In this document: positions 8,951 to 49,635 of the stretch, one piece after another
Layout of the letters: each line of letters opens with the position of its first letter
How positions within the stretch are numbered: the stretch's first letter is position 1
Source: Octopus vulgaris
Taxonomy: Eukaryota
Reading direction: 5' to 3'
NCBI GenBank assembly: GCA_951406725.2
Contig: OX597840.1
Location: 19,902,001-19,966,000 of the forward strand
Length of the DNA stretch: 64,000 nucleotides
Position numbers and translations under genes: made by a program
The notes under the pieces: generated by a model
What the model saw: the letters and a program-made list of their open reading frames with translations, nothing else
Told to the model about the DNA's origin: nothing
The model's database searches: none

Positions 8951-9085
8951 GACGAAGACAGGTGTATGAACAAAAGGCAAATGTATTAGTTTGACGCTCG
9001 GGAAAAATGAAAAGTCTTTAACATTTCGAGCCTACGCTCTTCAACAGAAAATAAACAGAGAAAAAATTAAAATACACCGTGTAGA
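8950..9085 (-). mobile_element. Family D hammerhead-like element fragment
   Basis: Contains TTTCGAGCCTACGCTCTTCAACAG (~9024-9047). Confidence 0.7.
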
Positions 9086-9384
9086 GTTCAGCTGCCCGGA
9101 GTAGTTTTGTTGAAGCACTGTGTGGTATAAATTTAAAGAGATTTGCTGTGTAAGGCCTGTTCTGTTCCGGCCTGACACAACAAATGCGTCACGGCATACA
9201 CGTCCAATGCGCCGCGGCACACTCCAACAAAGCGTCGTAGTACGCACACCCGATGCATCATGGCACACACTCCCAATGCGTTGTGGCACCTCCCCCCGTG
9301 CGTCTCCCTGTCCCCTCAATGCGTCGAGGACCAACACTCCGCCAACGCGTTACTGCACCAATGCGTCGCTGCAATGCGTCAATG

Positions 9385-9690
9385 CACCCCTCCCACTGCG
9401 TCGCTGCAATGTGTCACTGCACACCTCCCACTGCGTCGCTGCAATGTGTCACTGCACACCTCCCACTGCGTCGCTGCAATGTGTCACTGCACACCTCCCA
9501 CTGCGTCGCTGCAATGTGTCACTGCACACCTCCCAGTGCGTCGCTGCAATGTGGCACTGCACACCTCCCAGTGCGTCGCCGCAATGTGTCACTGCACACC
9601 TCCCAGTGCGTTGCCGCAATGTGTCACTGCACACCTCCCAGTGCGTCGCTGCAATGTGGCACTGCACACCTCCCAGTGCGTCGCTGCACC
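9385..9690. repeat. 35-bp GC-rich minisatellite (CACACCTCCCASTGCGTCGCTGCAATGTGTCACTG), about 9 copies
   Basis: Units start at 9420, 9455, 9490 and so on to 9665. The 35-aa periodicity seen in all three + frames equals three units. Confidence 0.95.
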
Positions 9691-10330
9691 TCCTCCCCCA
9701 GCACATCGCTGCACTTTCTCCCCACCACCACCGCCACCAATGTGTCACGACGCCCAGCTTGCCATTCACTGACCTAAGTGCATTAGACGTGGATCACCTT
9801 ATCAGAGGTGAAACAGAATCCTTTTTAATCTTGTTTGGTCGCTGTGTCTCTCAACAATGGATCGCCGTTGTATTCTGAATTCACTGACAAGCCAAACATT
9901 ATTAATCAAGGCAAATAGCAAAGGTTTTTGAACCAATTTCTGCTTCGTGTGAGGCCTTGCTTTTTGACAGCCATAATAAACTAGTCACCACTCAGTACTC
10001 TCTGCCAAACAACGACGAACGAATGAGGCCAGTGTCGAAGTGGTTGATATCTTAGAAGCAGCAGTCAAATCTCTCTTAAATCACATGGTTTTTAAAATTT
10101 CGAGGGGGTTTTGCCCCGTGAGTTTGTTCCACATGGCCACGCTGTGAACGTTACCATTTTATTCTCAACAGCTGCCGCGGGTATATAGTGTTTGGGACCC
10201 TGCTACCCGGCAGTGGTCTATCGAACACGCGCTCTCCTACAGACATTACGGTCAACTCCCCAGCACACATTATGGTCACCTTAGGTACATCTTATGGTGT
10301 CTGTTTTTAAAAAACATTGGGTACACATGG

Positions 10331-11035
10331 TCATCATCATCATCATTGTTCGACCGTGGTCGAGACAATGGAATTTACCATGCTACGCCAGACTTCACGG
10401 TCCATCATAGCATTACGGAGGTCGTGTTGCTGGATGCCTGTATCTTACATCAGGGTAGGAGAGTGTGCGCCCTCTGGCATTGCGAGCAGATGGCTTCCAG
10501 AGGAGAAGAGTAGAAATTACCTTGTTTTCAGCTCTACAACAATGTCCAGCAATGTCTTCTACCTTTCACAAGAGATGACACAGGTGGTAGTTTCCCATAT
10601 ATTTGCATTTTGGTTGGATGGCGCTTCCACGAGAGATTTTGAGCTCTCATAAGGAGGCGAGTGTAGGTTCCATCCAACCGCCTCTCAAGCTTCTTTGATT
10701 ACGTCCAGGTTTCTGAGCCATATAGTAGAATTGGTTCGACTGTGGCTTTGAAGATTTTAAGTTTGAAATCTCAACAACCCTGCCACCTATGGCTCTGAGA
10801 TGACACAGATGGTAATTTCCCATATATTTGTACTTTGGTTGGATGACGCTTCCACGAGAGGTTTTGAGCTCTCATAAGGAGGCGAGTGTAGGTTCCATCA
10901 AAAAACCTCTCAAGCTTCTTTGATAACGTCCAGGTTTCTGAGCCATATAGTAGAATTGGTTCGACTGTCGCTTTGAAGATTTCAAGTTTCAAGTCTCTAC
11001 TTAGATTTGATGACCAGATCTTATGCATGTCATTA
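10331..11035 (-). pseudogene. RTE-clade LINE 3' fragment (C-terminal ORF2 region, partly duplicated, with (GAT)n tail)
   Basis: ORF 10771-11040 reads KLEIFKATVEPILLYGSETWTL..RLLMRAQNLSW, the YGxETW motif that follows the RT domain in RTE elements. The same stretch repeats at ~10585-10770. The 3' end is (ATG)n at ~10331-10346. Confidence 0.85.
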
Positions 11036-11750
11036 CACATGGTACTAGGTTTTCTTGCGCGTAGGACAAAAAAAACAGGTGGGCTACTGACAGCTGGAAT
11101 GATTTTGGTTCAAGAACTATTCGATCAGAGCTGATCCTGGATGAGTCGAAGGGCGCAGTCTGCTCTGGTAACGCCTTGATGGGAGCAGCACCTTCGGGTT
11201 TGCTGTATACGTATGTATAAACTTGAAATACAAAATCAAGATCTGCTCCGAGTGGCACATATTCTAGCTTGGTCCACACACACACACACACACACACACA
11301 CACACACACACACACACACACACACACACACACACACACACACACACACACACACACACACACGGGTTTCTTTTCAGTTTCCGCCTCACTAGGTTTCGAT
11401 CGGACCAGGACACACTTCCAGAACTGAAGAGAACATCACACCATATTAATCACGTAGCCAGAGCGGTTCCAGAAGGTTTGGCGGAATCAATGTAATTACA
11501 GACAAAGCGCAGGCTTAGCTGTGTGGTAGGAAGCCTGCATTCCAAACACTTGCCCAAGGTGCCACGCAGTGGGACTGTACACGGAACCATGTGGTTGTTA
11601 AGCAAGCTACTTACCACACAGTCACTCCTACGCCTATATATGTGTGTGTGTGTGTGTGAGTGTATTGCCACCTCATTAAAAATAACAAAATAACAAACAA
11701 CAAGAGGACGTGCACATGGAGTGCATTAGTTTGACACTCGTGAGAGTTTA

Positions 11751-11780
11751 TGACGTTTCGAGCATAAGCTCTTCGTCAGA
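11751..11780 (-). ncRNA. Hammerhead motif with canonical core in a diverged family D copy (11680-11825)
   Basis: U-CUGACGA-A-GAGC-UUAU-GCUC-GAAAC-GUC-A. Stem I is poorly paired in this copy. Confidence 0.6.
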
Positions 11781-47098: not shown

Positions 47099-47150
47099 AG
47101 GTCTCCGATGAAGGGATATAATAAATATCCCGGAAACAGCTGTAAGACCT
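47099..47150 (+). ncRNA. Complete type-I hammerhead ribozyme fold (U4C core)
   Basis: AGGUCU-CCGAUGA-A-GGGAUAU-AAUAA-AUAUCCC-G-GAAAC-AGCU-GUA-AGACCU: 6-bp stem I, 7-bp stem II, palindromic stem III ACAGCUGU. Confidence 0.8.
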
Positions 47151-47199
47151 GCTATTTATAAATATTCTAAAATCTTCACAGCCTTGGGTTTTTTTTATC

Positions 47200-47390
47200 G
47201 CATTCGTTAGCTCCTACACGCATTTTTTTCTCTCCTTGTTTTTTTCTGTGTATCTTTCTGTCGAAGAGCGTAGGGCTCGAAACGTAAAAGACTTTTTCTA
47301 TTTCTATTCCTGAGCGCTATACTAATACATTTGTTTGTTTGTACTCCACCTGCCTTCGTCTTTTGTTTATTTTCGTAAACTTTCCCTTTC
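47200..47390 (+). mobile_element. Family D element with hammerhead-like motif at 47253-47291
   Basis: UCUUU-CUGUCGA-A-GAGC-GUAGG-GCUC-GAAAC-GUA-AAAGA. Confidence 0.78.
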
Positions 47391-48489
47391 TTTATATATG
47401 TGTGTGTGTTTAGTTAAGTTAAGTTAATTTTTTGGCTCAAAAAGCAAGGCCATGTAGAGGGACAGGGAGTTATGTACAGGGAGGGTGTTTATGCAAAGAG
47501 TTCAGGCCATTTCTGGTCAAGACCGACTTTGAACCGAGCGGTCGTCGGCATCTTTACTATGTATGTGTGTGTGTGTGTGTGTATGCTTCTGTGTGTGTGT
47601 GTGTATGTGTGTGTGTTTACATTATATATAGAATAAGTACTAGACTTACAAAAAATAAGTCCTGGTGTCGATTTGCTCGACTAAAGGCGTTGCTGCCGCT
47701 TGGCCGCAGTAAAGATGACTGAAACAGTCATTTTAAAAGTAAAAGAGTAAAAATAGAAGAATGCAAGACGGTGAAGGGGAGCAAAAATAAAAATTCAAAA
47801 CTTTCCAACAAAAATGGGTGCCGAGTTGATATCATCAACAGCAGCAGCAGCAACAACAACAACGACAGTTGCAGTAACAGCAGCAGCAGCATACCTGCAC
47901 AGCAGTAACCCCCCTCGCCTCCCTTTTTACAGTCTCAACAGCAAACATGCAGACGATACAGACGAGGCAGACGATACTCTCCCCCCCCCCCCACTCCAAG
48001 CTTTCTGCCTCCGACCGCCACTCTAACTCCTCCTCCAGTTATTTCGTTTACTCCCCTTCCTTCGATTCGTCAACGAAATTTCTGCTCGAAATCCTCGTCG
48101 CTCATTGGTTGCTTTCACTGTTTTCAGGTTTGTTTTTGTTAAGAAATATGGCGGGAAATTCATTTATAACGATAGTGGGGGTGGGTTGAGGGTGTACGGT
48201 GCGAGTTTAGGGTGGGGCGGACCGAGGTGAAAGCATTAGTCACTGTCAGGTAAGGTACAGGATTTTCCAAAATCCAAAAATAAAATCGTACGTTTTTGAA
48301 CGTGTTTGGTTACGTGTCTATCTATCTCAATCTTACTATCTGTGTGTGTGTGTGTATACACACACACACACACATATATATATATATATATATGTATGTA
48401 TGTATATATATATATATATGTATGTATGTATGTATGTATGTATGTATGTATGTATGTATGTATGTATGTATGCTTGTATGTATGTATGT

Positions 48490-48645
48490 GAGTGGCTGCG
48501 TGTAAGTAGCTTGCTTACCAACCACATGGTTCCAGGTTCAGTCCCACTGCGTGGCACTTTGAGCAAATGTCTTCTACTACAACCCCGGGCCTACCAAAGC
48601 TTTGTGAGTGGATTTGGTAGACGGAAACTGAAAGAAGCTCGTCGT
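48490..48645 (+). mobile_element. SINE-B 5' half
   Basis: Matches the consensus. Confidence 0.8.
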
Positions 48646-49339
48646 GTGTGTGTATATATATATATATATATATATATATATATATATATATATATATATA
48701 TATATATATATATATATATATGTATGTATGTATATATATATATATATATATATATATATACACCTTGCCCAAGGTGTCTCACAGTGGGACTGAACCCAGA
48801 ACCATATGATTGGGAATATATATAAAGTCCTTGGAGGGCAGAAAGACAGGGTATTTACAATGTATTGCTTAACCAGAGCTTTAGGCAATCTACAATGTGG
48901 CTTTCCAGACGAATATCAAAATTCTTCAGGTATAGAAACTCCTGGTTTCTCGACGGTAAAACCGTTGCATGGGTTTAGCAAAAGGTGAAATATAATCTGA
49001 ATAAGAGGACATCTTCACACATCTTTAATGATCAGGTACAAGTGTCTTGTGCGCCATCTCTTCTTGCGACGCCATTTCACGCAAAAGTTCGAAGTGGAAA
49101 TTTACGTAATATTTGCGGTTTTAGATATTAGATTGACACTTCCTTAGACCTGCATCAAAGCAACATAGATAGGTAGATGGATGGGTGGATGGATGGATGA
49201 ATGGATGGATGATGAATAGATAGATAGATAAATAGATAGATAGACAGAGAGGTAGATAGATAGATAGATAGATAGATAGATAGATAGATAGATAGATAGA
49301 TAGATAGATAGATAGATAGATAGATAGATAGATAACAGG

Positions 49340-49635
49340 AAGCTTTATGAAAATAGACAAAAGACGAAGGCAGGTTTACGGAAATAAACAAAAGACGAAG
49401 GCAGGTGGAATACAAACAAACAATTGTATTAGTATGGCGCTCAGGAAATATAAATAAAACAAGTCTTTAACGTTTCGAGCCTACGCTCTTCAACAGAAAG
49501 ATACACAGAGAAGAAACACAGAAAGAAGGAGAGAAAAAAATGCGTGCAGAGGCTAGCGAATCAACATGGCGATCTGATTTCGGCCAGAAGTCAAAGATCA
49601 AACGTGAGACGCAAAAGCGAAATTAGGGGAGATAA
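49340..49635 (-). mobile_element. Family D element with hammerhead-like motif at 49464-49501
   Basis: UCUUU-CUGUUGA-A-GAGC-GUAG-GCUC-GAAAC-GUU-AAAGA. It sits among (GATA)n tracts. Confidence 0.78.

Follow-up and report, generated by a model that had tools for sequence, protein, structure and literature searches.

A uridine at core position 6 of a hammerhead-like motif in an Octopus vulgaris repeat family

Penelope-type hammerheads and the family D motif

Minimal type I hammerhead ribozymes occur in the Penelope-like elements (PLEs) of metazoans, and the hallmarks given by Cervera and De la Pena (PMC4209133) are an extra base after A9, a G10.1-C11.1 pair and a palindromic stem III. Penelope hammerheads, their dimers and the core changes U3-A8, U4C and A6C are already known, and one review calls the role of hammerheads in PLEs unclear (further background: PMC8557442, PMC6765202, PMC6431247 and PMC11014351). 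The hammerhead of the Anolis element Poseidon (PAc) cleaves only with the element's own protein, and uncut RNA is the chief substrate for insertion (PMC11167929). Described here is a comparable motif in a 64,000-nucleotide stretch of the Octopus vulgaris genome (contig OX597840.1, positions 19,902,001 to 19,966,000 of the forward strand; the window), where seven copies of a dispersed repeat, family D, carry U instead of A at core position 6. At the level of sequence, family D is a genuine variant of a familiar type of motif, its core change being common to the whole family.

The copies, named below by the coordinate of their C3, share the layout (stem I)-CUGU-N-GA-A-GAGC-loop-GCUC-GAAA-CG-U-N-AAAG, with a G5C change in 42603:

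9016..9051, minus strand: family D; C3 at 9047; CUGUUGA; C15.2U; U17; the most divergent copy; homology at about 8951-9066
17904..17939, minus strand: family D; C3 at 17935; CUGUAGA; G17; repeat at about 17801-18073 with a TA-rich run at its end
25341..25374, plus strand: family D; C3 at 25345; CUGUAGA; stem III GU deleted; repeat at about 25215-25466 with (TA)n at its end
33777..33812, plus strand: family D; C3 at 33781; CUGUGGA; GAAACGUU intact; repeat at about 33713-33906 with (TA)n at its end
42572..42607, minus strand: family D; C3 at 42603; CUCUGGA (G5C); C15.2U; A17; repeat at about 42478-42669 with (TA)n at its end
47254..47290, plus strand: family D; C3 at 47258; CUGUCGA; extra G in loop II; A17; repeat at about 47202-47387
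49465..49500, minus strand: family D; C3 at 49496; CUGUUGA; GAAACGUU intact; repeat at about 49373-49590

Position 6 is U in 7/7 copies, and the family D pattern gives seven matches in the window, whereas 100 shuffles average 0.00. Neither an eighth copy nor a member with A6 was found in the window; a BLAST search with flanks recovers the same seven, so no A6 member has been overlooked there. The original prediction had taken U6 as the state of the whole family, and this holds for the window and, as described below, is supported by public sequencing runs beyond it; all ten cores that it named, including three of sister lineages, lie where it had placed them. C3, U4, G8, A9, G12, A13, A14 and A15.1 are constant in all seven copies, as is GAAA, while U16.1 is kept in 6/7 and position 17 is A or U in five, G in one and lost by deletion in one. 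Stem II is the predicted GAGC/GCUC in every copy, at 4 bp, and stem I could pair over 4-5 bp in the six copies evaluated; the expected (U/C)CUUU/AAAG(A) describes stem I except in 9047, which reads UUUU/AAAG. Two features had gone undescribed, namely an additional A that separates A9 from stem II in 10/10 motifs (seven of family D and three sisters), and a palindromic AC-GU stem III, whose 15.2-16.2 pair is C-G in 4/7 copies, U-G in 2/7 (a CpG site) and deleted in 1/7. The consensus hammerhead core reads C3 U4 G5 A6 N7 G8 A9, and family D is not classed with it because of U6 in 7/7 copies, plus G5C in 42603.

Identity is 74-93% among family D copies, measured over 114-177 aligned bases, and 59-68% between them and the sister lineages, which are:

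8033..8067, plus strand: sister lineage; C3 at 8037; CCGACGA (A6, U4C); stem I GUUU/AAAC
56472..56506, plus strand: sister lineage; C3 at 56476; CCGACGA; 94% identical to the copy at 8033
11748..11783, minus strand: sister lineage; C3 at 11779; canonical CUGACGA; stem I poorly paired, 1 bp

The paired GUUU/AAAC stem I had been ascribed to the sisters at 8033 and 56472; in 11779, stem I has a single base pair. In a nine-row tree without 56476, which is almost a twin of 8037, all seven copies of family D cluster with weak support (79/87).

The seven copies are likely 3' ends, truncated on their 5' side, of a single lineage of Penelope-like retrotransposons, judging from how the motif and the repeat ends are built. 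The extra base between positions 9 and 10.1 and the G10.1-C11.1 pair of the minimal PLE hammerhead are present in 7/7 family D copies and 3/3 sisters, and a 15.2-16.2 palindrome of the kind that permits dimers is found as C-G in 4/7 and U-G in 2/7. Homology upstream of C3 extends over 62-138 bases in six copies, the divergent copy having 19; at the other side, the repeats end in a TA-rich run in 5/7, in a TATC array in one and in an interruption by another repeat in one. The combination of a common 3' end, variable 5' truncation and an AT-rich or microsatellite target is a PLE trait, not unique to PLEs; a microsatellite bias is reported for Neptune and Naiad elements. Among 239 filtered stop-to-stop frames of at least 55 amino acids (aa) across the window, there was no Pfam match to a reverse transcriptase (RT) or GIY-YIG domain, and the sole match above cut-off was a Tc1/mariner transposase fragment (PF01498, E 3.6e-11, 21265-21678, minus strand). 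Linked RT and GIY-YIG loci were likewise lacking in the viral and prokaryote collections, where family D patterns had no matches; a general hammerhead pattern had none in viral contigs, and no hammerhead family stood among the best 150 of 309 Rfam matches to the window at E up to 1.

With the metazoan PLE hammerheads described in PMC4209133, family D shares the base added after A9, the G10.1-C11.1 pair, a palindromic 15.2-16.2 in place of a loop III, a stem I that is short, a 5' flank rich in U and mostly single, dispersed copies. It differs in two respects: the descriptor of that study fixes A6, the aligned examples consulted have A6 and the known core variant is U3-A8, whereas family D has U6; and no linked open reading frame (ORF) for an RT-endonuclease was found in the family D window. 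The Neptune hammerhead of Acropora digitifera (PMC4209133 Fig. S3) and the metagenome motifs treated below share with family D the order core, A, stem II, GAAACGU. PAc resembles family D in having its hammerhead shortly upstream of the insertion's 3' end and an AT-rich target; it differs in its known ORF and protein-assisted cleavage (PMC11167929). Non-LTR (long terminal repeat) retrozymes (bioRxiv 10.64898/2026.07.22.740005), which are related to pseudo-LTRs (pLTRs), resemble family D as non-coding repeats with a motif of the type I hammerhead, but by definition form tandem units, whereas the copies of family D occur singly, at distances of 2-9 kb.

Variation in the motif, its flanks and public sequences

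A motif no better conserved than its surroundings had been named as part of what would refute the original prediction; the motif is in fact the more conserved. Pairwise identity among the seven copies falls from 90% in the motif to 73% downstream and 52% upstream, the values being 91%, 78% and 61% without the divergent 9047. Invariant columns number 31/36 in the motif against 38/73 downstream (Fisher p=0.0006) and 9/50 upstream, in a test whose columns are not independent, whose motif limits were chosen by the analyst and whose upstream flank aligns poorly. The five variable motif columns are the outer stem I base (two states), G5 (changed in one copy), N7, C15.2 (part of a CpG, altered in two copies) and N17. 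N7, with four states, and N17, with three, are the most variable; position 7 is therefore free, as proposed, but not alone in being so, and for these two positions the published consensus has N and H. Of the cells in the proposed stems, 93% are paired across the ten sequences, and one stem I pair, the fourth, is altered on both sides, appearing as C-G, U-G, G-C or U-A.

Positions 6 and 7 were followed further in the contigs of four public runs (13812, 4119, 11973 and 2136 contigs), three sharing one species label and one carrying another, which were aligned at 80% likeness to 47085-47385, with copy 47254..47290 as the reference. This view leaves less similar lineages out of reach, contig depth is not read as copy number, and the best-matching run may share the window's own source. 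U6 (47261) has no alternative letter at 2% in any of the four, a status deduced from the number of changes of each kind in each run, since every T-to-A, T-to-C and T-to-G place lies elsewhere. N7 (47262), by contrast, is non-reference in 41, 47, 58 and 57%, with U making up 27-52% and A 5-13% of depth. G8 shows no G-to-A at 2% in two of the runs (X2 and X14), where its CpG partner C7 is U in 40-52%; other CpG sites change by 0.1-6.5%, apart from one at 20% in X1. Being one-sided and far above CpG decay, C7U points to differences among source elements, and CpG decay as the only cause of N7 variation is rejected for this change. Most N7 variation looks inherited from distinct source elements. 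The suggestion that it might partly be neutral decay thus holds only in part: C7U looks inherited, and G7, which occurs in 2/7 window copies and below 2% in the four runs, may be a private change.

Related motifs also occur in public metagenomes. A search that required C3, G5, G8, A9, the additional A, stem II and GAAACGU but allowed any base at positions 4, 6, 7 and 17 gave at least 118 loci (L001-L118; about 250 estimated). The 119 matches listed, which are not independent and in many cases come from few families, have A6 in 109, C6 in seven and U6 in three, and U4C in 40. The three U6 matches carry further core changes and a stem I of 0-1 bp, and a CUGU core appears in none of the 119. The commonest motif listed is one base from the Acropora Neptune hammerhead (PMC4209133 supplement). 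Family D departs from the Neptune and metagenome motifs in lacking their prevailing A6 and in loop II and stem I; it has the same GAGC/GCUC stem II as the metagenome look-alikes, where, however, the search pattern fixed it. U4C, a weakening change, also occurs in two unrelated families of the window (8037/56476, and a motif at 47105 described below), and, with the metagenome matches, is seen to recur in motifs of this kind.

Fold, activity and competing explanations

Stem III has no loop and is possible only between two copies, and the predicted minimum free energy (MFE) fold of the monomer is a rod rather than a hammerhead. The predicted cost of the dimer over two monomers is 1.3-10.6 kcal/mol in six family D copies and has a median of 10.9 (3.7-17.1) kcal/mol in 46 distinct natural A6 motifs, so that, by this gap, family D appears structurally no worse than its A6 counterparts. 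Replacing U6 with A in silico widens the gap between dimer and monomer in 4/6 copies and narrows it in 2/6. A selected role for U6 in stabilizing an inactive rod (U4-G5-U6 with A15.1-C15.2-G16.2) was considered and rejected, as the gap changes are mixed and A6 motifs form rods too. Likewise, a shifted register, with a U inserted before an A6, was rejected on inspection because it would abolish G8 along with its pairing to C3. In a separate observation, family D stem I (e.g., at 47250-47292) could form two more pairs, GU with AC, beyond a two-base bulge whose bases differ among copies and within the public runs.

Published measurements on position 6 concern other changes. A natural A6C hammerhead, that of phage Bcep176, cleaves at less than 0.1 per minute (PMC3088659), and A6C is far weaker in Mg2+ than in Mn2+, which nearly rescues it in two ribozymes (PMC7151607). 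Family D likewise has a natural pyrimidine at position 6, but the phage case is a single locus with C6 and measured activity (PMC3088659), whereas family D has U6, is a high-copy animal repeat and is known from sequence. No activity value for A6U is given in the text or supplements examined of the pairwise mutagenesis study PMC9901934. Lunse et al. and Arkhipova et al. 2017 reportedly covered large numbers of these motifs, cores being relaxed in the second survey. No literature report of a natural A6U hammerhead was found, although these two surveys (the former in RNA Biol) may contain U6; none occurs in the text of the 11 supplement files of PMC3088659.

The family D motif probably derives from a consensus hammerhead and works like one. 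More specifically, an explanation to which we would give about even chances is that it is a slow ribozyme, dependent on dimerization and on protein, with its tertiary fold still under selection; a slow, assisted ribozyme fits a pattern in which N7 and N17 alone are free. Under this explanation A6U would have arisen once, in the ancestor of the family, after which selection would have continued to maintain the tertiary fold of the hammerhead in the source elements. U6 may be a tolerated founder change, a possibility beyond the two that the original prediction had put forward (a functional core variant, or a catalytically weak fold kept as an RT recognition signal) and between which the present data do not choose. 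Two motifs would be joined by the palindromic AC-GU stem III and cut slowly after N17, low activity would be cheap because uncut RNA would be the inserted template, and genomic copies would decay neutrally once inserted. All seven copies span the predicted cut site, which implies that their templates were uncut or rejoined there; a start at that site, which would have been a sign of cutting in vivo, is seen in 0/7.

A number of observations weigh against the slow-ribozyme explanation. Loop II (GUAG) is as constant as the catalytic bases, which is beyond what catalysis alone explains, and the invariance of U6 is weak evidence by itself, 38/73 downstream columns being invariant too; with about half of those columns equally invariant, a favoured U6 is indistinguishable from a tolerated one. 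Stem II is invariant and so offers no covariation, and the sole two-sided change in stem I comes from the sister lineages. The statement that most copies keep GAAAC-GUH was too generous: the exact GAAACGUH is present in 3/7 (33781, 47258 and 49496), while 17935 has G17, C15.2U occurs in both 9047 and 42603, and the GU is missing from 25345. The N17 variants and G7 of the window are missing from the differences within the runs, so the contig view is biased toward the reference subfamily. With no RT or GIY-YIG in the 239 frames, the Penelope link depends on the build of the motif and the repeat ends. From the biochemical side, activity was low for every single change in the CUGA turn (PMC9901934), catalytic mutants of the anole hammerhead did not reduce insertion in vitro (PMC11167929), and Naiad elements thrive without canonical hammerheads.

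The same anole mutants, together with the lack of RNA-seq ends at the cut site (PMC11167929), lend some credit to a motif that does not cut at all, its fold or sequence being kept for binding by the RT/endonuclease protein or for folding of a nearby initiation site. This is possible, if on the unlikely side. It would agree with the seven copies that cross the predicted cut site and the none that begin there, with the conservation of loop II and of downstream blocks, and with the core-weakening U4C of other window families and of 40 listed metagenome matches. A plain hairpin signal, however, predicts otherwise than N7 and N17 free beside fixed, unpaired catalytic bases, and insertion is still supported by an anole fragment that begins at +20, counted from where stem II starts, so that the 5' half of the core is dispensable for recognition in that element (PMC11167929). 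It is also conceivable, but unlikely, that A6U killed or crippled the ribozyme of a founder that amplified anyway, conservation then reflecting ancestry or some other constraint such as an internal promoter or an ORF start. Just seven related copies were aligned, their tree is weakly resolved, G12 decays by 0.1-4.2% in the public runs, near the 1.0-6.2% of a downstream CpG, and both constraints have precedents in the anole ORF, which begins in stem II (PMC11167929), and in the promoters described in pLTRs. Against such a founder stand the 91% identity of the motif beside 78% downstream even without the most divergent copy, the lack of an ATG in the motif, the insertions of 6-7 bases just after it in two copies, and the unchanged G8 in the two runs with C7 at 40-52% U.

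That U6 is fully functional, at about the speed of A6 in this context and perhaps through second-site or metal-ion compensation, seems highly unlikely. No compensating core change is visible, A6 is found in 109/119 outside motifs listed with the same stems II and III, and the only rescue within two changes in PMC9901934 was a C3-G8 swap; the reading draws on the Mn2+ rescue of A6C (PMC7151607) and on the retention of U6 across lineages 74-93% identical and under two species labels. Finally, it is tempting, though doubtful, to suggest that A6U was fixed because turning the ribozyme down, or making it dependent on protein, let more uncut transcripts be inserted. Were that true, family D would be a very high-copy natural U6 lineage invisible to surveys for CUGANGA, Penelope hammerheads, given the repeated U4C, would erode the uridine turn yet keep the catalytic bases, and family D and its A6 sisters would offer a natural test of what these ribozymes do. 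In any case, a successful lineage without A6 but with the rest of its core retained, found next to sisters that do have A6, allows selection for cutting to be told apart from selection for the fold. If U6 cuts, it joins the short list of natural core variants, and descriptor searches undercount such motifs; if it does not, a hammerhead fold has been retained without catalysis.

Other hammerhead-like sites and repeats in the window

Directly upstream of the family D copy at 47254..47290 lies a hammerhead of another family (47099-47147, plus strand; C3 at 47105) with the core CCGAUGA (U4C), a stem II of 7 bp, a stem I of 6 bp and a palindromic ACAGCUGU stem III; its predicted dimer MFE structure is the hammerhead fold, and it is multi-copy in the four runs. 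The stem III palindrome of this motif recurs without a core as GAAACAGCUGUC at 33678-33690 (plus strand), just upstream of another family D copy. A 3' fragment of the 8037/56476 family, lacking the hammerhead and flanked by two (TA)n, is found at 54613-54701 (plus strand) and starts about 13 bases past the predicted cut site. Near the 3' end of copy 42603 lies a perfect 69-bp inverted repeat (42255-42397), each arm of which contains GAAAC-AUAU-GUC, reminiscent of a different hammerhead's 3' half that folds back at stem II.

Hammerhead-like candidates with the canonical cores CUGAUGA and CUGAAGA occur at 28458 (minus strand) and 26603 (plus strand), respectively, stem I being weak or missing. 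A further candidate at 56973-57030 (plus strand), with a 7-bp outer and a 5-bp inner stem, GAAA-AUAU-U and a two-mismatch core GUGCAGA, may be due to chance, as the loose descriptor gave one match in 2/20 shuffles. The window as a whole is 38% G+C and rich in microsatellites and dispersed repeats, and long, nearly perfect inverted repeats lie at 22932-23074 and 20442-20553.

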